The position numbers were made by a program, and so were the translations under genes. Below, piece after piece: positions 1,069 to 10,975 of a stretch of 22,910 bases of DNA; positions within the stretch are counted from its first letter, which is position 1; every line of letters starts with the position of its first letter. Under the pieces are notes generated by a model that worked only from the letters and a program-made list of their open reading frames with translations, had not been told where the DNA came from and made no database searches. This DNA is from a virus (lineage: Duplodnaviria > Heunggongvirae > Uroviricota > Caudoviricetes): the IMG/VR virus record IMGVR_UViG_2713896903_000002; one strand, 5' to 3'.

Positions 1069-1358
1069 TGGTGAGTTTACGTAAAGCAGCGCGGGGCCAG
1101 ATGTGCCAGGTCAGAATCCCTGGCTACTGCAATCACAATCCCGAAACGTCTGTGCTGGCGCATTACCGACTGGCGGGAACGTGCGGAACAGCGATAAAGC
1201 CACATGATATGCAGGCAGCGATTGCCTGTAGCTCGTGCCACGATTTAATCGACGGGCGGGTAAAAACCAGTGATTACACCAAAGAAGAATTGCGCCTGAT
1301 GCATGCAGAAGGTGTTTTTCGCACACAAGAAATCTGGAGAAAGGAAGGTTATTTATGA
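1068..1358 (+). CDS. DUF1364 / YbcO-like putative nuclease (Cys/His-rich)
   Basis: 96 aa; recalled similarity to DLP12 YbcO (KAARG..CQVRIPG.CN.NPETSVLAH.R..G.CG...KP.D..A.IACS.CHD); translationally coupled to Q by ATGA overlap. Confidence 0.65.
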   Translation: MVSLRKAARGQMCQVRIPGYCNHNPETSVLAHYRLAGTCGTAIKPHDMQAAIACSSCHDLIDGRVKTSDYTKEELRLMHAEGVFRTQEIWRKEGYL

Positions 1359-1909
1359 TTTACCCAACAAATACAGGCAAAAGCGGGGAACACCTTCGTC
1401 TCACCACGCTGGAAAGTGTCTGGATTCAGGGAAAACTGCGCATGTGGGGGCGCTGGTCGTATATTGGCGGCGGTAAGATGGGAAATATGTTTAACCAGTT
1501 GCTGGCATCCAAAAAATTGACGAAAACAGCCGTCAATGAAGCCCTGCGCAGGATGAAAAAAGCGGGAATAGAGAAACCTGAGCTGGAAGCGTTTTTGCGA
1601 GAGATGATCAATGGCAAGCAAAAGACCTGGCTGGCGCATTGTACTGATGCAGAGGCGTTATGTATTGATCGAGTCATAAGTGAGGTGCTGGCAGAGCATC
1701 CTGGATTGATTTGTATCCTCCGGCAACGGTATGAGGGACGGGGGATGACCAAGCGCAAAATGGCTGAATTGCTAAATGATTCACACCCTGAGTGGTGTTA
1801 CGCCACGTGCCGTAATCGCATAGATGCGTGGTTGAAAATGGCAGAGTTTATGCTCTATCTGCCGATGCGTGATGCATTCTCTTCCGGGGATCTAGAAACC
1901 GTCTGTTGA
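1355..1909 (+). CDS. late-gene antitermination protein Q (Phage_antitermQ-like family)
   Basis: 184 aa; RMWGRW...C..AEALCIDRV...LLNDSHPEWCYATCRNRIDAWL pattern resembles QuuD-type Q proteins; followed immediately by a consensus-like promoter and the lysis/packaging genes. Confidence 0.65.
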   Translation: MIYPTNTGKSGEHLRLTTLESVWIQGKLRMWGRWSYIGGGKMGNMFNQLLASKKLTKTAVNEALRRMKKAGIEKPELEAFLREMINGKQKTWLAHCTDAEALCIDRVISEVLAEHPGLICILRQRYEGRGMTKRKMAELLNDSHPEWCYATCRNRIDAWLKMAEFMLYLPMRDAFSSGDLETVC

Positions 1910-1935
1910 CTCAATCTGTTATCCGGGGCTATATT
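1906..1935 (+). promoter_or_regulatory. candidate late promoter (PR'-like): -35 TTGACT (1906-1911), 18-nt spacer, -10 TATATT (1930-1935)
   Basis: Near-consensus sigma70 hexamers directly read from sequence; -35 overlaps the Q stop codon, as the lambda PR' -35 TTGACT lies just after Q. Confidence 0.5.
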
Positions 1936-1997
1936 CCTCACACGCCAGCAAAATCTGGCGTCGGGATTGGCGTCCCGGATGTTTACGGAGCGATATG

Positions 1998-2018
1998 AGA
2001 CGCGCCCGCGTCTTTTTT
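1998..2018 (+). terminator. intrinsic terminator (tR'-like) about 60 nt downstream of the putative late start
   Basis: 6-bp GC-rich stem agacgc/gcgtct (1998-2003 with 2008-2013), 4-nt loop, followed by T6 run. Confidence 0.45.
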
Positions 2019-2739: not shown

Positions 2740-2836
2740 AAAAATTCTTGCAATTTTAGCCATAAACTGCTTCAATTTTGCTACGCTTCGCAAAGCTGTA
2801 TCGCGAGGCGAACCAAATGCAATTGAACTTTAATAG

Positions 2837-2860
2837 AACCCGCCATTGAGCGGGTTTTGT
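2837..2860 (+). terminator. intrinsic terminator downstream of the ORF6N gene
   Basis: acccgc / cattga loop / gcgggt hairpin followed by TTTT. Confidence 0.45.
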
Positions 2861-3039
2861 TGTTTGAGGAGGGGGAGAATGAATCAGACTGGTCAACCCA
2901 ACTATGCGCTTTTCGCCGGGAATGATAGCAATAGAGAAAGCCATAAGTGAATTAAAAATCTGTCAGCGCCAGTTCGGCCAAGGAAATGATTCTGGTGTCA
3001 GAGCTTTTATTCGCTAATTTTTTCACTGGGAGGCTATTT

Positions 3040-3297
3040 ATGCATTCACACCATCATCAAATATCTATGATCCCACTTACCATGAGTTCACCCATTAAAG
3101 GTTTTTCACTGTATGTAGAAAGCGAAGACATGGCTGTCGCTATAGCTGAGCTTGAAAATGCCTTATCACAGCTCAAGAACGGAGATAAGGCATTCAAAGA
3201 AAGTGGCACGTTGGTTGGTAACGTCAGAGCAAGTTATTGCTATCCTTACCGTCCTCATTGTGCCGCGAAAGGTCTTTATTGGGATGAAGGGGATTAA
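3040..3297 (+). CDS. hypothetical protein (85 aa), convergent partner of the 3294..3806 gene
   Basis: ATG 3040 with GGGAGG 6 nt upstream; AT-rich; its stop shares the TTAA tetranucleotide with the stop of the minus-strand gene. Confidence 0.4.
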   Translation: MHSHHHQISMIPLTMSSPIKGFSLYVESEDMAVAIAELENALSQLKNGDKAFKESGTLVGNVRASYCYPYRPHCAAKGLYWDEGD

Positions 3298-3806
3298 GCA
3301 AGGACTTGTTCACCGATAGTTACTGGTAATGGACAAATGTATTCCCAGACTGGATCAGGGTTAAAAGTTTTTCCTGACCAGTAAAGCTCCATTCTGTAGG
3401 TGAATTCCAATACCGATGTATCATTTCTTAATAATGACATATCTCCACGATGATAACTATCTGTTTGTATTATAAAAATTTTATCTGATGGTTTTCCGTC
3501 TGTAAGTCGAAAATGTTTAGCCTCCTCCAGGTTACCCCAGGCGAAGAGTGACGTATAGCGAGAAGGTTTTTGCGGGCAAACTCCTCTTCGGTAAAACTCA
3601 AGTCCCCAGTCGATGAGTTCGTTTTTATTATAAATTTTTGCCGCATTATTAATGAGATATCCTTCGCCTTGTGGAGCAAGCCCGCGCGGAAAAAGTTTGT
3701 CTACCAGAGATGACATTTCAACAGGAGTTATATCGGAGAATTGCTTTGGTGTAACGATATCGCCTGTTGAGTATATTCCTCGGCGATCAACCATAAATAG
3801 TTTCAT
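3294..3806 (-). CDS. hypothetical protein (170 aa) in AT-rich moron; function unknown
   Basis: Long minus-strand ORF in an otherwise + strand operon; GGAG 6 nt upstream of the ATG at 3804-3806 (alternative upstream ATG at 3816-3818 without a good RBS); visibly lower GC than flanks. Confidence 0.5.
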   Translation of the reverse strand: MKLFMVDRRGIYSTGDIVTPKQFSDITPVEMSSLVDKLFPRGLAPQGEGYLINNAAKIYNKNELIDWGLEFYRRGVCPQKPSRYTSLFAWGNLEEAKHFRLTDGKPSDKIFIIQTDSYHRGDMSLLRNDTSVLEFTYRMELYWSGKTFNPDPVWEYICPLPVTIGEQVLA

Positions 3807-4046
3807 TAATTTCTCCATTGATAGTTGTTACTTTTGGCGATGTAACGATATCAAACGAGAATTTATATCGCCAGATGCTTAATCTGATACTTCATCTGAC
3901 CCTAGTATGTGTCGGTTTTTTTATTTAAGGCCACTGACAGGTCCATTTAGTGCAACGCCTTTCCCCGTTTCCGCTCCTGGAATATTCGGGGATTTTTTAT
4001 TCCCTAAACTTACACCCGCGATATGTGCGAGGTGAGAGATGATGAA

Positions 4047-4382
4047 ATGCCTCATAACCCAAATACCTGGCCGGACTGGCTGGAGTTGTTTCAGAGCTGG
4101 TGGCGTGGAGACACCCCGCTGGGCGCAGTGATTATGTCGATCGTTATGGCTGGTTTGCGCATCGCCTATTTTGGCGGTGGTGGGGGCTGGAAACGAAAAA
4201 CGCTTGAGATTTTGCTCTGTGGTGCCCTGACGTTGACCTTTGCATCCGCGCTTGAGTATGTCGGATGGCCTAAATCACTTTCTGTTGCCATTGGTGGTGG
4301 GGTGGGGCTGATTGGTGTTGATGCTATTCGTGGTGCGGCAATGAGGGTCATCGGTAACAAGTTTGGTGCTCATAAGGAGTAA
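4047..4382 (+). CDS. holin (predicted three transmembrane segments, class I-like)
   Basis: GAGGTGAG 9 nt upstream of ATG 4047; three hydrophobic stretches and a charged C-terminus; directly precedes the endolysin. Confidence 0.65.
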   Translation: MPHNPNTWPDWLELFQSWWRGDTPLGAVIMSIVMAGLRIAYFGGGGGWKRKTLEILLCGALTLTFASALEYVGWPKSLSVAIGGGVGLIGVDAIRGAAMRVIGNKFGAHKE

Positions 4383-4385
4383 TTA

Positions 4386-4862
4386 ATGCAGACACTGAAT
4401 TCCCAGCGTAAAGCTTTCCTTGATATGGTGGCATGGTCAGAAGGAACGGATAACGGACGGCAGAAAACCAGAAATCACGGTTATGATGTTATTGTCGGTG
4501 GCGAACTGTTCACTGATTACTCCGATCACCCCCGCAAACTTGTCACGCTAAATCCGAAACTCAAATCAACAGCCGCCGGACGTTACCAGCTTCTTTCACG
4601 CTGGTGGGATGCCTACCGCAAGCAACTTGGCCTGAAAGATTTTTCGCCAGAAAGCCAGGACGCTGTAGCGCTGCAGCAGATTAAAGAGCGTGGCGCATTA
4701 CCGATGATTGACCGCGGCGATATTCGTCAGGCAATCGACCGTTGCAGCAATATCTGGGCTTCGTTGCCGGGCGCTGGTTACGGTCAGTATGAACATAGAA
4801 TCGGTGACCTGATTGCCCGATTTAAAGAAGCTGGTGGGGTGGTAAATGAAGCTGAGATATAA
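4386..4862 (+). CDS. R: endolysin, lambda R-type lytic transglycosylase
   Basis: Near-identity over most of its length to lambda R as recalled (NSQRKAFLDMVAWSEGTDNGRQKTRNHGYDVIVGGELFTDYSDHPRKLVTLNPKLKST...). Confidence 0.9.
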   Translation: MQTLNSQRKAFLDMVAWSEGTDNGRQKTRNHGYDVIVGGELFTDYSDHPRKLVTLNPKLKSTAAGRYQLLSRWWDAYRKQLGLKDFSPESQDAVALQQIKERGALPMIDRGDIRQAIDRCSNIWASLPGAGYGQYEHRIGDLIARFKEAGGVVNEAEI

Positions 4863-5401: not shown

Positions 5402-5686
5402 AGTTATCCCACCAGACAGCGAAACGATGAACGGGATTTTTTGCAGTGATTGAATGTAAATATGCGCATCAGCCGATGACGCCAAAAGTTATCGATGAAA
5501 TGCAACGCGAAGCAGCGCGTCTTGTACTGCGAGCGACAAATACAAAGGTTGCGTTCGTTCTGGACTGACATTACAGAAGCTCCTTTGATAAGGGGCTTCG
5601 ATAATGTCAAAGCTCGTTATCTGCACCCGCCGCGCACCCAGCGCACTGGCCGATAGCGGGCTTTTTTATTAATAAAGCGAGGCTGT

Positions 5687-6466
5687 ATGAGCGAGAAATT
5701 GAAGATCGTCTATCGCCCGTTACAAGAACTGTCTCCGTATGCACACAATGCCAGGACACACAGCCCTGAGCAGGTAACGCAACTGGTAGAAAGCATTAAG
5801 CAATTTGGCTGGACTAATCCGGTGCTGATTGATGAAAAGGGCGAAGTTATTGCGGGTCACGGTCGCGTTATGGCGGCTGAAGTGCTCAAAATGGATTTCG
5901 TTCCGGTCATCGTTCTGTCTGGTCTGACGGATGATCAGAAAAAGGCGTACCGTCTGGCAGATAATCGCCTGCCGATGAATGCTGGCTGGGATGAAGATCT
6001 GTTACGGATGGAGCTGTCGGACCTAATTAATGCTGATTTTGATGTCTCCCTGACAGGCTTCAGCCCGATAGAAATTGATGAACTGTTGACGGATATTTTG
6101 CCTGGTACAGGAAATGAGGAGGAGCCGTATACGACGAAAATTGATACGCCTGTTTATGAGCCGTCAGGCGATAAACCGGATATCTGTGAACTGTACGACG
6201 ATACGAAAACTCAGGAGCTGATCAGCCGGATACGTTCGGCGTCCCTTAATCCTGATATTGAGAAATTCCTCCTGTGCGCGGCAGAACGTCACACGGTGTT
6301 TAATTTCAGCAGAATCGCGGACTATTACGCTCACGCCCCCGCTGAAATTCAGAGCCTTTTTGAGGAATCGGCTCTGGTGATCATTGATTATCAGCAGGCA
6401 ATTGAAAATGGGTTTGTCAGGATGACGCAGCGCATGGTGGAGATCATGCATGGCGAGGAGGAGTAA
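5687..6466 (+). CDS. ParB N-terminal-domain (ParB/sulfiredoxin-like nuclease domain) protein
   Basis: N-terminal LSPYAHNARTHSPEQV..L..SI..FGWTNPVLID..GEVIAGHGRVMAA pattern typical of ParB-N/ParBc domains; translationally coupled to the next gene. Confidence 0.65.
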   Translation: MSEKLKIVYRPLQELSPYAHNARTHSPEQVTQLVESIKQFGWTNPVLIDEKGEVIAGHGRVMAAEVLKMDFVPVIVLSGLTDDQKKAYRLADNRLPMNAGWDEDLLRMELSDLINADFDVSLTGFSPIEIDELLTDILPGTGNEEEPYTTKIDTPVYEPSGDKPDICELYDDTKTQELISRIRSASLNPDIEKFLLCAAERHTVFNFSRIADYYAHAPAEIQSLFEESALVIIDYQQAIENGFVRMTQRMVEIMHGEEE

Positions 6467-6467
6467 T

Positions 6468-7400
6468 ATGCGTGATGATTTTTGCGCCTTTATTCTGACT
6501 CACGGGCGACCGGACAAAGTTCTGACTTACCGGACGTTGCGTCGTGCTGGCTATACCGGGAAAATTTTTATCGTTGTTGATGATGAAGATAAAACCCGGC
6601 ATCAGTACGTAGCAGAATTTGGTGAACAGGTGCTGGTGTTTTCCAAAGCCGATATCGCCAGTCGTTTTGACGAAGCCGACAACTTTGGCGATCGACGTTC
6701 AATCTTTTATGCCAGGAATGCCTGTTTGGGCCTGGCAAAAAAGGTTGGGTGTAAATACTACATCCAGCTTGATGACGACTATCACGAGTTTCAGTTTCGG
6801 GTGGATCGCAACTATGACCAGGCTTATTTTCCGATAAGGAAACTGGACTCGATCCTTTCTGAAATGCTGGCGTATTACGAATCAATTCCTGCGCTTTCCA
6901 TCGCTATGGCGCAGGGGGGGGATTTTCTTGGTGATAATGGTGGTCATGCTGCATGGGTGAAACGCAAAGCAATGAACAGCTTTATTTGTTCTGTTGACCG
7001 ACCATTCTCATTTATGGGGCGTATTAACGAGGATGTGAATACATACACGAATCTCGGTCGTCGTGGTGAATTGTTTTTGACGATTGGCGCTGTCCAGTTA
7101 GGGCAGAAGCAAACGCAGAAAAACAGCGGCGGAATGACCGAACTGTATCTGGATTCCGGCACCTACGTTAAAAGTTTTTACTCCGTCATGTATGCGCCGT
7201 CGTGCGTAAAAATCTCACTGATGGGCGCCAGCCATAAACGCATTCACCATCAGGTCACCTGGAACAACGCTGCAGTAAAAATCCTTCACGAAAAATACAG
7301 GAAGAAGACACCCTGCATATCAATGGGGGTGATAAATGATTCCGTATTCGAAAGTCGAGTCTCTGGCAGCGTGCCGGATGACTGCACAACAAATCGCTGA
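6468..7400 (+). CDS. hypothetical protein with DxD-type acidic motifs (possible GT-A-like nucleotide-sugar transferase fold); function unverified
   Basis: GAGGAGGAG RBS before ATG 6468; motifs IFIVVDDEDKT and YIQLDDDYHEF; no methyltransferase or PAPS-reductase motifs seen. Confidence 0.5.
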   Translation: MRDDFCAFILTHGRPDKVLTYRTLRRAGYTGKIFIVVDDEDKTRHQYVAEFGEQVLVFSKADIASRFDEADNFGDRRSIFYARNACLGLAKKVGCKYYIQLDDDYHEFQFRVDRNYDQAYFPIRKLDSILSEMLAYYESIPALSIAMAQGGDFLGDNGGHAAWVKRKAMNSFICSVDRPFSFMGRINEDVNTYTNLGRRGELFLTIGAVQLGQKQTQKNSGGMTELYLDSGTYVKSFYSVMYAPSCVKISLMGASHKRIHHQVTWNNAAVKILHEKYRKKTPCISMGVINDSVFESRVSGSVPDDCTTNR

Positions 7401-7587
7401 CGTTCTGGATGTTGATCTGAACAGACTGAAAGAAAATCGGGAAGCAATGACAAATTTTTATGCGTCCATCCGTAAGGGCAGAGCGAAAGGTGAAGCCGAG
7501 CTACGGGCGGCATTGTTTAAGCTTGCCAGAAAAGGGGATGCCTTTGCTCTGCGTGCATTACTCAGGGTGGATAAAAATCAGGACTAA
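7336..7587 (+). CDS. small helix-turn-helix-like protein (83 aa), overlaps the 3' end of the upstream gene
   Basis: GGGGGTGA RBS before ATG 7336; TAQQIADVLDVDLNRL HTH-like segment; 65-nt overlap with upstream ORF makes the start uncertain (alternative ATG 7378). Confidence 0.4.
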   Translation: MIPYSKVESLAACRMTAQQIADVLDVDLNRLKENREAMTNFYASIRKGRAKGEAELRAALFKLARKGDAFALRALLRVDKNQD

Positions 7588-7590
7588 CTG

Positions 7591-8685
7591 ATGAGCAGAC
7601 CGGACTGGGGGGCGTTGCAGCAGGAATATATTGCTGAATACACCCGCTCCGGTGTATCTCCGGTGGCGTGGTGTGAAGCAAAGGGACTGAATTACGCAAC
7701 AGCCCGTCGTTACATCAAGAAACCTCCGAAAAATGCGCAGACAGAAGTGCGCAAAACTGCGCAAAAAAGTGCGCGAAAAAAAACTGCGCAGACTGCGCAA
7801 AAGCAAAACGGAAAATCTCAGAAAAAAAAGACTGTATCCGATGCACTCCTGATTGAGGAGGACACGGAAGAAATTTCGTTCTGCCCCGATGAATTCGGTA
7901 TTTCTGACCAGCAGGCAAAATTCGCCATGTTGGTTGCTCAGGGGAAAAAGCCGACAGAGGCATACCGCCTGGCTGGTTACGAGGGGCAAGGTGCGACAGC
8001 AAACAGCAATGCCAGTCGTATGCTTAGAAATGCCAGGGTTTTTCGTGCCATCAGCTACTTTCGCAATCATTACCAGAAACGCTATACCGCAGACCTGGAT
8101 TTACTGGTGAGTCAGTTGATGGCCATCGTGCAGGCTGATCCCAATCAGCTTGCGCAATTTCGCCGTGTTAACTGTCGCTATTGCTGGGGGGAGAATCACC
8201 TCTATCAGTGGCGCGATATAGCAGAATTTGACAGGGCTGCCGCGCAGGCATCCAAAGATGGTAAACCAGAACCTGAATATGGTGGCCTCGGTTTCGTTGA
8301 TAGCGCCATACCAAATCCAGACTGTCCGAAATGCGGTGGAGAAGGTACAGGTCAGCTTTATATGGCTGATACCACTTTGCTTGATGGAAATGCGCGGCAA
8401 TTGTATGCAGGAGCAAAGCTCGGAAAATTCGGCGTTGAGATCCTGCTGGAGAATAAAGCTGCCGCCCGGCGTGAATTATTGCGTTTGCTTTCCGCTGGCG
8501 GGGCATTATGTGCAGATAAGCGACTACAGGAACTGGAAATTGAACGGCGCAGAATGGAAAACCAGAAACTGCGCAAAGAGATCGAAACGGTGGAGGGTAA
8601 TGAACATCCCCAGCCTGTGGCGATCAATATTAATGTGGTTGATGCCAGAGTGAGGAGTGATGAAGATGATCTCTCCGACGCTTAA
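7591..8685 (+). CDS. terminase small subunit (Terminase_2-type core with N-terminal HTH, K/A/Q-rich linker and C-terminal Cys4 zinc-ribbon-like segment)
   Basis: KFAMLVAQGKKPTEAYRLAGYEG...NASRMLRNARV matches the small-terminase signature as recalled; CxxC...CxxC (NCRYCWGEN / PDCPKCGGEG); sits directly upstream of TerL. Confidence 0.75.
   Translation: MSRPDWGALQQEYIAEYTRSGVSPVAWCEAKGLNYATARRYIKKPPKNAQTEVRKTAQKSARKKTAQTAQKQNGKSQKKKTVSDALLIEEDTEEISFCPDEFGISDQQAKFAMLVAQGKKPTEAYRLAGYEGQGATANSNASRMLRNARVFRAISYFRNHYQKRYTADLDLLVSQLMAIVQADPNQLAQFRRVNCRYCWGENHLYQWRDIAEFDRAAAQASKDGKPEPEYGGLGFVDSAIPNPDCPKCGGEGTGQLYMADTTLLDGNARQLYAGAKLGKFGVEILLENKAAARRELLRLLSAGGALCADKRLQELEIERRRMENQKLRKEIETVEGNEHPQPVAININVVDARVRSDEDDLSDA
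7734..7799. repeat. six copies of palindromic hexamer TGCGCA (one TGCGCG) spaced 9-15 nt apart inside terS; candidate pac / TerS-binding array
   Basis: Direct reading: TGCGCR at 7734, 7748, 7758, 7770, 7785, 7794, mostly followed by A-runs. Confidence 0.45.
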
Positions 8686-10975
8686 TGTGCCTCAGGCGCG
8701 ATTTCTTTCTATGCCTCATAAATTTAAAGCCTATGTTGCTGGTTTTGGTTGCCTGAGGGGAAGTACGCCTGTGGTTACAGAGAATGGGATTCTACCCATT
8801 CAGGAAATAACTCGACCAATGCGCGTTTTATCTTGGTCGGATGAGAATAATCGATTTGAGCTTTCGCTAAGTGGTGGTGCGTACCCAAAAGGTGTGGCGA
8901 ATCTATACCGAGTAGTGACGCAGCGAGGAGAATTTGTAGCAAGCGGACATCACCGCGTTTTTTGCGCTGACGGTAGCTATCGATCTGTGGATAGTCTGGA
9001 CGAATCGGTGAAGGTATTTGCATCTTCGCAAAACCTTCTTCTGACCAGTTTGGCCGCCGTCCCGAAATCGTTGCACGCAGGTGATCCACGTTTGAATCAA
9101 AAACTCGCAGATTACTTGGGGTGTTATGCAGATGAAGCCCGTCGATATGGTCAACAACTTCTGATGGCAGCAGATAACGCCCCAGCTTCTTTTCAGCGAT
9201 CAAACGATGTTCAAACATCATGCCTGTTCTGCGCATATATGGATGGTCAGCAGGCGCTGGAACAACGGCATATTCATCCAGATCAACAATTCGACCACCA
9301 CGAAAGCTGGGGTTCAACTCACCCTTTCTGGCGCCACGGGAGAGCCGGTTGGTGTTGTGAATTCGGAGAATATTTTGAACGTGCTTTTCTGTGCAACCAA
9401 CTTCCGCCGCGATCTCTGCCGACGTACAGTGACCATCAGCAAGAGCGAGGATTCTGTCCTTCGCACTTTCTCGAGGGGCAGGCTTCTGGCGTTGTTTCAG
9501 CGTTAACCCATAACGAGATATGCAACGATAAACATGACTACGGTCACAACCTGCCAGAGAAGCAACTTCTGAAACGGTACGTTCTGGATGTGCTAAATCA
9601 CAAATTAAATGGTCAAGAGGCGTCAAAACCAAACGCCTTAATCGAAACCTGCAACATATTGAGTGTAACACTGTTGCAGGAGGCCGAGCCATATTATGAC
9701 CTCCAGGTATTGGATAATAACTGCTACGTAACTGCTGATGGGACGATTCATCACAATAGCGGTAAAACATGGGTTGGGTGTGGTGGCATATGTAAGGGGA
9801 TTTGGGAGCATCCGGGTATCAATCAGGGATATTTCGCGCCTACATATCCACAAATTCGCGATATTTTTTATCCTACAGTTGAAGAAGTTGCTGCCGACTG
9901 GGGGCTAAATGTAAAAATTAACGAGGGAAATAAAGAAGTTCATTTTTATTACGGACGTCAGTATCGGGGAACCACTATCTGCAGATCGATGGAGAAGCCA
10001 CAAACGATCGTCGGTTTCAAAATTGGTAATGCGCTGGTGGATGAACTGGACATTTTGCCGAAGGAAAAAGCCAGAACAGCGTGGCGCAAGATAATTGCGC
10101 GTATGCGTTATAAGGTTGATGGACTTCGTAACGGTATTGACGTTACAACCACGCCGGAAGGATTCAAATTTGTCTACGAACAGTTTGTTAAAGCCGTACG
10201 TGAAAAAACAGAGCTGGCCTCACTGTATGGCCTGGTACAGGCATCTACTTTCGATAATGAAAAGAATTTGCCAGCAGATTACATTCCCTCGCTCCTTGAG
10301 TCATATCCTCCAGAGCTGATTAAAGCCTATCTTCGGGGACAGTTTACTAACCTGACAAGTGGTACTGTTTACCATCAGTTTGACCGAAAACTGAATAATT
10401 GCGAAGAAGAGGAACAGCCAGGTGAGCCGATATATATCGGGATGGATTTTAACGTCGGAAAAATGGCTGGAGTCGTTCATGTGTTACGTTTTGGGCTTCC
10501 ATGCGCAGTAACTGAAATCATTAACGCTTACGATACACCAGATATGATCCGTATTATTAAAGAGCGCTTCTGGTTATATGACGGGAATGATTATCGGAAA
10601 GTAAGGGAAATTTATATTTATCCTGATGCATCCGGGGATTCCAGAAAATCAAATAACGCAAGTGCGACGGATATTGCTCAGCTTAAACAGGCTGGTTTTA
10701 ACGTTGTTGTAAACAGTTCGAACCCGCCAGTAAAAGATCGCGTTAACTCAATGAATGCAATGTTCTGCAATGCCAATGGTGAGCGTCGCTATAAAGTTAA
10801 TGTGAAGCGTTGTCCGGTATATGCCGAATCTCTGGAGCAACAGGTCTGGGATGATAAGGGTGAGCCTGATAAAAAATCTGGTAACGATCACCCGAATGAT
10901 GCCGGAGGTTATTTTATTGTTAAGCAATTCCCTATTGTCAAACCGACCGGAAGAGTTACATCACTTCGGATTTAA
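8657..10975 (+). CDS. terminase large subunit, intein-containing precursor (probable start ATG 8666; spliced product about 433 aa)
   Basis: Walker A split as ...YVAGFG | intein | SGKTW...; Walker B-like ALVDELD; nuclease-domain motifs IYIGMDFN and DHPNDAGGY; continuous 772-codon frame. Confidence 0.85.
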   Translation: MMKMISPTLNVPQARFLSMPHKFKAYVAGFGCLRGSTPVVTENGILPIQEITRPMRVLSWSDENNRFELSLSGGAYPKGVANLYRVVTQRGEFVASGHHRVFCADGSYRSVDSLDESVKVFASSQNLLLTSLAAVPKSLHAGDPRLNQKLADYLGCYADEARRYGQQLLMAADNAPASFQRSNDVQTSCLFCAYMDGQQALEQRHIHPDQQFDHHESWGSTHPFWRHGRAGWCCEFGEYFERAFLCNQLPPRSLPTYSDHQQERGFCPSHFLEGQASGVVSALTHNEICNDKHDYGHNLPEKQLLKRYVLDVLNHKLNGQEASKPNALIETCNILSVTLLQEAEPYYDLQVLDNNCYVTADGTIHHNSGKTWVGCGGICKGIWEHPGINQGYFAPTYPQIRDIFYPTVEEVAADWGLNVKINEGNKEVHFYYGRQYRGTTICRSMEKPQTIVGFKIGNALVDELDILPKEKARTAWRKIIARMRYKVDGLRNGIDVTTTPEGFKFVYEQFVKAVREKTELASLYGLVQASTFDNEKNLPADYIPSLLESYPPELIKAYLRGQFTNLTSGTVYHQFDRKLNNCEEEEQPGEPIYIGMDFNVGKMAGVVHVLRFGLPCAVTEIINAYDTPDMIRIIKERFWLYDGNDYRKVREIYIYPDASGDSRKSNNASATDIAQLKQAGFNVVVNSSNPPVKDRVNSMNAMFCNANGERRYKVNVKRCPVYAESLEQQVWDDKGEPDKKSGNDHPNDAGGYFIVKQFPIVKPTGRVTSLRI
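8750..9757 (+). other. intein (336 codons) inserted in the TerL P-loop
   Basis: Block A CLRGSTPVVTENG starting with Cys at 8750; block B-like GEFVASGHHRVF; blocks F/G EPYYDLQVLDNNCYVTADGTIHHN ending in HN followed by Ser +1 (9758); extein halves rejoin to AGFGSGKT. Confidence 0.8.
8775..9692 (-). CDS. HNH endonuclease with N-terminal HTH-like modules, encoded antisense within the intein
   Basis: Minus-strand ORF shows HNH core FEHRLIAEKKLGRYLLPSEVVDHIDGLHLHNTPSNLRVFDSNVDHL (antisense of about 9075-9215); GGAGG + 7-nt spacer before ATG at 9690-9692; ORF is open from 9770 to 8775, so the true ends are uncertain. Confidence 0.55.
   Translation of the reverse strand: MARPPATVLHSICCRFRLRRLVLTPLDHLICDLAHPERTVSEVASLAGCDRSHVYRCISRYGLTLKQRQKPAPRESAKDRILALADGHCTSAEIAAEVGCTEKHVQNILRIHNTNRLSRGARKGELNPSFRGGRIVDLDEYAVVPAPADHPYMRRTGMMFEHRLIAEKKLGRYLLPSEVVDHIDGLHLHNTPSNLRVFDSNVDHLRATISGRRPNWSEEGFAKMQIPSPIRPDYPQIDSYRQRKKRGDVRLLQILLAASLLGIDSPHLLGTHHHLAKAQIDYSHPTKIKRALVELFPEWVESHSL

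Follow-up and report, generated by a model that had tools for sequence, protein, structure and literature searches.

A two-gene moron encoding a DUF2441/BC2332-like protein of the ADP-ribosyltransferase superfamily and a convergent small partner in the Q-to-holin slot of an Escherichia lambdoid prophage

The cassette and its insertion site

We analyzed a 22,910-nucleotide (nt) stretch of DNA from a virus of the Caudoviricetes (IMG/VR record IMGVR_UViG_2713896903_000002), referred to here as the window, and concentrated on two convergent genes at positions 3040 to 3806, between a Q-type antiterminator gene and the lysis genes. The plus-strand gene encodes a protein of 85 amino acids (aa). The minus-strand gene encodes a protein of 170 aa which belongs to the ADP-ribosyltransferase (ART) superfamily, and it is called the ART gene below. 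A first-pass annotation, made from the sequence alone, had described a convergent pair with stop codons sharing the tetranucleotide TTAA and with good ribosome-binding sites (RBSs) on both genes. Both descriptions could be read directly from the sequence, and the features of the cassette were as follows.

3040-3297, plus strand: small-partner gene, from ATG at 3040 to TAA at 3295-3297, 85 aa, on the strand of the late operon
3294-3806, minus strand: ART gene, from ATG at 3806 to the stop at 3296-3294, 170 aa, DUF2441/BC2332-like, antisense to the late operon
3294-3297, both strands: shared stop TTAA, with one TAA per strand
3028-3033, plus strand: Shine-Dalgarno sequence GGGAGG of the small gene, 6 nt 5' of the ATG
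3816-3813, minus strand: Shine-Dalgarno sequence GGAG of the ART gene, 6 nt 5' of the ATG

Both open reading frames (ORFs) are real genes. The start of the ART gene was placed at 3806 because the in-frame ATG at 3818 is not kept among homologues, while the start of the 85-aa protein is supported by the conservation of its N-terminal residues. The length and the RBS of the small gene were conserved as well. Further, we compared five diverged copies of each gene and observed purifying selection on both, with pairwise ratios of nonsynonymous to synonymous substitution rates (dN/dS) of 0.06-0.21 for the ART gene and 0.09-0.39 for the small gene.

The first-pass annotation had described the segment as visibly lower in guanine plus cytosine (GC) content than the flanking genes. 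We observed that 2866-3913 is the lowest-GC stretch of the window, 0.41 versus a mean of 0.468 +/- 0.024 for intervals of 1,048 base pairs (bp); it ranked 8 of 875, and all intervals with lower or equal values overlapped it. The same stretch is lacking in E. coli P4 (locus L003), where the flanks 2008-2865 and 3914-4500 are contiguous save for a filler of 240 unrelated bp in place of approximately 1,048 bp. Identity with this empty site stops at 2865, right after a GC-rich hairpin and T-tract, and is back at approximately 3914. We also compared positions 2750-4100 with 5,426 complete E. coli genomes by megablast. Both flanks were present in more than 1,200 of them, and the flank halves were approximately 540 bp apart among the two-piece matches listed. 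Besides E. coli P4, hundreds of genomes gave such a match in two pieces, as expected of an empty site. The cassette itself was rare in this set (7 of 5,426 genomes).

The cassette was found in at least five other prophage backbones. In strain C311 it lies behind a DNA methyltransferase gene, in PCP06235 after Q and ahead of a class II holin, in Salmonella between Q and a type-2 holin, and in Arsenophonus between RusA and an N6/N4 methyltransferase. Ten IMG/VR prophage contigs carry it, and proteins identical to those of the cassette are encoded by several hundred contigs from E. coli, E. albertii, E. fergusonii, Shigella and Salmonella. Homology to the cassette begins at 2982 for locus L001 and at 3018 for L002, so that its core spans approximately 3018-3937. 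Thus the earlier proposal of a moron in the Q-to-holin cargo slot was borne out by the empty site in relatives, the recurrence in different backbones and the deviant composition: the stretch at approximately 2866-3913 is a moron of two genes that is mobile by horizontal transfer and occupies the Q-to-holin slot of an Escherichia lambdoid prophage. A tRNA-linked cargo site was ruled out, as a tRNA is absent from the window.

The boundaries of the insert and the surrounding late region were read as follows.

2837-2865: GC-rich hairpin AACCCGC-CATTGA-GCGGGTT followed by a T-tract, the final backbone sequence before the insert
2866-3017, plus strand: left part of the insert, approximately 150 bp, in which the only ORF has 23 codons and a strong RBS (2880-2951)
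3897-3925, plus strand: right boundary of the insert, with backbone homology back at approximately 3914
1355-1909, plus strand: DUF1133/Q-type antiterminator gene (DUF1133 match at 1e-108, plus a weak Phage_antitermQ match)
1906-1935, plus strand: pR'-like promoter TTGACT-18-TATATT from a consensus scan, just 3' of the Q-type gene
1997-2014, plus strand: tR'-like terminator from a consensus scan, just 3' of the Q-type gene
2050-2739: ORF6N gene, between the Q-type gene and the cassette
3975-3991, plus strand: terminator-like hairpin in the backbone, from a consensus scan
4047-4382, plus strand: lambda-family holin S, downstream of the cassette
4386-4862, plus strand: GH24 lysozyme, after the holin and followed by Rz/Rz1

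Genes for DUF1367 and YbcO proteins are also among the neighbours of the cassette, on the side of the Q-type antiterminator. The left part of the insert (2866-3017) occurs neither in the other copies of the cassette nor at the empty site, and the consensus scan of it gave no plus-strand promoter-like site. At the right boundary the hairpin of the terminator is degraded and its T-tract retained; the terminator is intact in the empty-site prophage. By analogy with lambda, the segment 1906-2014 is presumed to be the start of the late transcript, which would have to cross the cassette.

The cassette resembles lambda bor and lom and the stx genes of the Q-S interval in being extra DNA of the late region, bounded by terminators, deviant in composition and absent from sister phages. 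The ART gene points against the late operon, as bor is generally known to do. Unlike bor, lom and stx, it forms a convergent unit with a second gene on the opposite strand, and its product has a cytoplasmic enzyme fold rather than being an outer-membrane lipoprotein or an exotoxin.

Family and fold of the two proteins

Neither protein had shown a recognisable motif on first inspection, which for the 170-aa protein does not hold. By its close homologues, by profiles and by fold it is a DUF2441/BC2332-like member of the ART superfamily. Scans of Pfam, NCBIfam and PADLOC with both cassette proteins as queries gave no direct match. Among the close homologues of the 170-aa protein, 11 of 13 match PF10386 (DUF2441), the best at 4.6e-8, and PF10386 matches were found precomputed for the 99%-identical protein P0001 and approximately 130 relatives. 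Profiles built from its relatives match the structure of Bacillus cereus BC2332 (PDB 2AUA) at 4.8e-7 and 2.3e-12; a crystal structure for DUF2441/BC2332 has been available since 2005. The fold of the 170-aa protein is that of BC2332 and includes the ART core fold. A BFVD fold search matched uncharacterised phage proteins only, and the PHROGs match was to phrog_5663, 'unknown function' (1e-57). The profile and structure searches that had been proposed as a check therefore placed the 170-aa protein in the ART superfamily, while the 85-aa protein was left with no relatives in Pfam or PDB.

DUF2441 belongs to the Pfam ART clan (PMC7955679), and the BC2332-like proteins are family d.166.1.6 of SCOP, in the ADP-ribosylation superfamily (PMC3000352). 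With ProFunc, the active-site templates derived from 2AUA fit the catalytic sites found in diphtheria toxin, exotoxin A (ExoA) and cholix toxin (PMC3024214). BC2332 is only 16% identical in sequence to the 170-aa protein and approximately 45 residues longer at the N-terminus. It has no known function or partner, whereas the 170-aa protein is carried as cargo by a prophage, together with its conserved convergent partner.

Across 113 family members the residues D7, R8, E70, R73, R74, P81-S82-R83, S86, D122-M123, Y142-W143 and W154-E155 were near-invariant, with counts of 99/113 for R8, 113/113 for R83, 97/113 for S86 and 112/113 for E155. E155 sits on a beta-strand (154-159) in the context 'WEYI', which resembles the 'VEYI' motif of diphtheria toxin. 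On the basis of this conservation, E155 may be the catalytic Glu of motif III, and motifs I and II may be represented by an Arg (R8 or R83) and by S86, as candidate residues for the binding of nicotinamide adenine dinucleotide (NAD+). E70, R73 and R74 make up a conserved cluster specific to the family. Near-invariance of these residues in 113 members therefore argues for an active enzyme, its activity being a prediction.

We considered whether the enzyme could serve lysogenic conversion by acting on a small molecule, namely by Arr-like ADP-ribosylation of an antibiotic, toxin or metabolite, as an NAD+ hydrolase or in a phosphotransferase-type reaction, with a small protein unrelated to inhibition. 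AcrIF11 and Arr show no sequence similarity to the 170-aa protein, have different motif sets and lack a convergent small partner. We regard this explanation as very unlikely.

The 85-aa protein is an orphan and represents a new partner family. An indexed search gave 17 matches, and an exhaustive hidden Markov model (HMM) search of 1.84 billion proteins gave 11 representatives. The gain from the exhaustive search was just three distant homologues from bacteria and two repeat proteins from eukaryotes; we regarded the latter as spurious. A fold search with the predicted model gave no match, and neither the domain searches nor the fold searches revealed DNA-binding or macrodomain-like features. 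The conserved features of the protein are an N-terminal His cluster, a strand-helix core (FSLYVESED-x3-AI-x2-LENAL) and a C-terminal motif SYxYPxRPHC...YWDE. That its His and Cys residues might form a metal site is speculation.

Conservation of the pair and loci without the partner

All ART genes whose products showed 71% or more identity to the window protein were accompanied by the small gene, convergent and with the same 4-nt overlap. The overlap stays TTAA or CTAA (YTAA) in all copies of clade A, which come from E. coli, Salmonella, Arsenophonus and metagenomic sequences. As it is kept across diverged copies, the overlap of the stop codons is not due to chance. Further, we detected diverged homologues of the partner in Mu-like prophages of Salmonella, Enterobacter and Klebsiella, with profile E values of 2e-9 to 1e-5 obtained in a small search space. 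These converge, at a distance of 8-15 nt, on DUF2441 genes of 37-38% identity, and they retain the strand-helix core without the C-terminal motif. In all loci examined the small-protein family was seen only beside ART genes. By sequence comparison, then, the two genes form a conserved unit and their pairing is old.

These observations also bear on the possibility that the two genes are unrelated neighbours, or that the 85-aa ORF is non-functional, and that the overlap is an accident of compaction. The 85-aa protein has no recognisable domain and a low-confidence model, and its annotated starts differ, giving forms of 71, 76, 85 and 100 aa, as would be expected under this explanation. Against it stand the dN/dS values of the small gene and its kept length and RBS, the conserved N-terminal residues that support the 85-aa start, the co-occurrence with the ART gene in at least five backbones, the diverged pair in Mu-like prophages and the restriction of the family to the neighbourhood of ART genes in the loci examined. 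We consider an accidental arrangement extremely improbable.

Two individual loci deserve description. In the record of Klebsiella phage KP12 clone KP12_2 (OM835952.1; locus L034) we observed an unannotated partner-like ORF at 3904-4284 on the minus strand (profile E 3e-7), which converges on a DUF2441 gene and runs approximately 77 nt into the 3' end of the ART gene. An out-of-frame TAA lies just beyond the ART stop, and the long ORF may be the result of a frameshift or of a sequencing error. The record itself resembles a Mu-like prophage rather than a phage of the Vequintavirinae. In locus L016 (IMGVR_UViG_2657244961_000008) a copy of IS10 with a 402-aa transposase (6505-7860) is inserted exactly into the TTAA overlap. 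It is flanked by a 9-bp target duplication, TGCTTAATC, and both stops are intact with the genes 1.3 kb apart, so that this locus is a natural uncoupling of the pair.

Solo DUF2441 genes were found in loci L004, L007, L008, L026-L031 and L040, where the partner profile finds nothing; one solo gene is on an environmental contig. In lambdoid prophages the solo genes occupy the slot from Rz to the terminase, again antisense to the late genes. The solo gene of L007 is carried by an integrative and conjugative element with DUF3438, DUF2895 and RAQPRD transfer genes, and it adjoins a gene for a 623-aa AAA_15/AAA_21 ATPase of OLD/Gabija-like type (5510-7381, minus strand). These surroundings suggest a defence-type cargo neighbourhood.

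In temperate phages of Gordonia the DUF2441 gene lies near the integrase or repressor and a RelBE pair, and the enterobacterial partner was not detected there. In Gordonia phage JuJu the DUF2441 gene stands beside the RelBE pair and the integrase. In Gordonia phage Guacamole (locus L033, 3492-4222, gp33/gp34) the DUF2441 gene is followed, after a gap of 5 nt, by a convergent gene for a 75-aa protein with no detectable homology to the enterobacterial partner. An alternative conserved partner in the ART clade of 45% identity was also considered and rejected, as the neighbours vary from locus to locus. In a crude neighbour-joining tree the solo lineages fall between two partner-bearing clades, which suggests that the partner may have been lost repeatedly.

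Control regions and proposed role

We compared the non-coding sequences of the cassette copies and scanned them for promoters and terminators. Two minus-strand features were recorded.

3807-3880, minus strand: 5' region of the ART gene, with TCTGGCG (3875-3869) ... TTGATATCGTTACATCGCCAAAAGTAACAACTATCAATGGAG (3854-3813), from an alignment of six copies
3478-3506, minus strand: promoter-like CTTACA-17-TAAAAT within the ART gene, in the sense direction, from a consensus scan

Approximately 75 nt 5' of the ART gene are conserved among copies with saturated synonymous sites (dS 1-2), and approximately 20 nt, which include the RBS, are conserved 5' of the small gene. The block before the ART gene contains an inverted repeat TGGCG/CGCCA and weak sigma-70 candidates, TTGATA-18-TAACAA or GTTACA-17-TATCAA, with 8 of 12 matches each. 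An RNA structure was ruled out for this block by the folding energy of -3 kcal/mol and no covariation. Presumably it is a promoter or operator travelling with the gene. The promoter-like sequence within the ART gene is conserved in the Salmonella and Arsenophonus copies (L009; L013, 5301-5329), which makes three diverged copies in all. Transcription from it, were it active, would yield an RNA antisense to the small gene; the sequence may simply reflect conserved codons for RLTDGKPSDKIF.

In the Salmonella copies the same hairpin as at 2837-2865 lies approximately 20 nt before the RBS of the small gene and has a terminator score on both strands (L009, 5790-5809). The Salmonella copy has a second late-strand terminator after the ART 5' block. 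Thus terminators can be recognised clearly on both sides of the Salmonella module, and those of the window have partly decayed. The small gene lies on the strand of Q and the holin in every clade-A locus examined, with the ART gene opposed to it, and the two genes leave no space for a terminator between them. Therefore late, Q-modified transcription would have to read through the small gene in the sense direction and through the full length of the ART gene in the antisense direction before it reaches the lysis genes.

Our preferred reading, held tentatively with a probability of approximately 0.4, is that the cassette encodes an NAD+-dependent ART effector expressed in the lysogen and used in conflicts between mobile elements, together with an 85-aa cognate modulator that is most probably its inhibitor. 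The enzyme would most likely use NAD+ to ADP-ribosylate a target. It is most likely expressed in the repressed prophage, from a promoter of its own, because it has its own 5' control region and is oriented against the late operon. Lambda bor, which is oppositely oriented, is expressed from the repressed prophage. The small protein is most likely a product of the lytic phase (or of low read-through), since its gene has an RBS only, lies behind a terminator and is on the strand of the late operon. At induction the small protein would be made, while late transcription running antisense through the ART gene would interfere with expression of the enzyme. The 85-aa protein would bind the ART and modulate it, most likely by inhibition, and the convergent overlap would make expression of the pair mutually antagonistic and reciprocal. 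The pair might then act against other phages or mobile elements, in defence or exclusion by the lysogen, and spare the prophage's own lytic growth.

A classical proteic toxin-antitoxin (TA) or addiction module was weighed against this. Here the ART would be a growth-arresting toxin and the 85-aa protein a labile antitoxin, serving prophage stabilisation or abortive infection in the manner of DarTG, ParST, Res-Xre and MbcTA. Such a module fits the fold neighbours of the 170-aa protein. The known pairs DarT-DarG, ParT-ParS, Res-Xre, MbcT-MbcA, TreX-TriX and Tne2-Tni2 are operons, whereas the genes described here converge with overlapping stops, and the co-directional operon with an autoregulating antitoxin that is typical of type II systems was not found. 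The partner is unrelated to macrodomains, to Xre or helix-turn-helix (HTH) proteins and to the known immunity folds of ART toxin pairs, and features typical of DNA-binding proteins or macrodomains were not seen in it. Because the small gene of clade A lies behind a terminator and lacks a conserved promoter, a lysogen would make the toxin without the antitoxin. Nor is the pairing obligate. Unlike in ART toxin pairs, the partner is absent from many DUF2441 members, including lineages nested between partner-bearing clades, and there is no PADLOC match. The IS10 copy of L016 splits the pair with both genes intact. For these reasons an addiction module seems unlikely to us.

The ART could also be an enzyme of counter-defence or host takeover, like AcrIF11 or the T4 proteins Alt, ModA and ModB, in which case the small protein would regulate it or determine its specificity. 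The clade-A ART genes run antisense to the late operon and no early promoter points their way, so they are poorly placed for lytic expression. Loci of anti-CRISPR (Acr) proteins usually carry an HTH regulator, 'aca'; such a regulator is absent from this locus, and the likeness of the 170-aa protein to AcrIF11 is no greater than to any other ART. We judge a role in counter-defence quite unlikely.

Several observations weigh against a lysogen-expressed effector with a cognate inhibitor. The 170-aa protein alone gave no hmmscan match to PF10386, even at E<=10, and neither cassette protein matched any PADLOC-DB v2 defence model at E<=1. The searchable literature yielded no functional study of any DUF2441 protein, whether of activity, target, interaction or expression. 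The predicted model of the 85-aa protein, beta-beta-alpha-beta-beta, is of low confidence (predicted local distance difference test score, pLDDT, of 66). Promoter scans gave no consensus-grade promoter 5' of the ART gene. No partner could be detected in several DUF2441 clades that are closer to clade A than the Mu-like clade is, so that the enzyme can evidently be carried in its absence. Lastly, in the Mu-like clade the orientation is reversed, with the ART gene co-directional with the holin and lysis genes and the partner behind its own 180-bp upstream region. A partner wired to the late operon is therefore not a general feature of the family.

In its most specific form, the proposed effector and inhibitor would constitute a self/non-self switch of the prophage. 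The ART would be a weapon of the lysogen against incoming phages or mobile elements, and its inhibitor would be hard-wired, behind a terminator, to the Q-antiterminated late transcript of the prophage, so that the prophage alone could turn the weapon off, at its own induction. We regard this form as doubtful. If it were true, it would give a first function to a 20-year-old orphan ART family, DUF2441/BC2332, and add a new inhibitor family. Should the enzyme prove active, a new ART lineage would join the enzymes of phage-host and phage-phage conflict, and the cassette would illustrate how a moron can be connected to the antitermination of the late operon. Should it prove inactive or without phenotype, the cassette would be just another prophage moron to which no function can be given. 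As a kind, an ART-fold enzyme that travels on a moron together with a small cognate protein is already known and not surprising. What is new is the uncharacterised ART lineage, the new partner family and the unusual, conserved tail-to-tail architecture. As a compact handle of 0.8 kb on DUF2441, the cassette offers empty-site controls, a candidate modulator and an architecture that predicts the timing of expression.

Further along the window, two observations concern other genes. Between Rz and the small terminase gene, a gene for a ParB_N-like protein (5687-6466; weak match, 25 bits) overlaps the start of a gene for a TET-associated glycosyltransferase (TAGT, PF20691, 3e-35) at 6450-7400. The two genes may be cargo for the hypermodification of DNA; a TET/JBP gene was not seen, however. 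The ART gene had been called essentially the only reverse-oriented gene apart from an HNH gene internal to an intein. The count of reverse genes is approximately right; the placement inside an intein appears not to hold. The reverse ORF at 8775-9770 (minus strand) encodes an HTH and HNH_3 endonuclease, and the 772-aa plus-strand ORF that spans it (8657-10975) matches Terminase_6N only from residue 368 on. Therefore the HNH gene does not look like an intein insert and is apparently free-standing, a homing endonuclease gene between terS (7591-8685) and a terL that would truly start near 9750.

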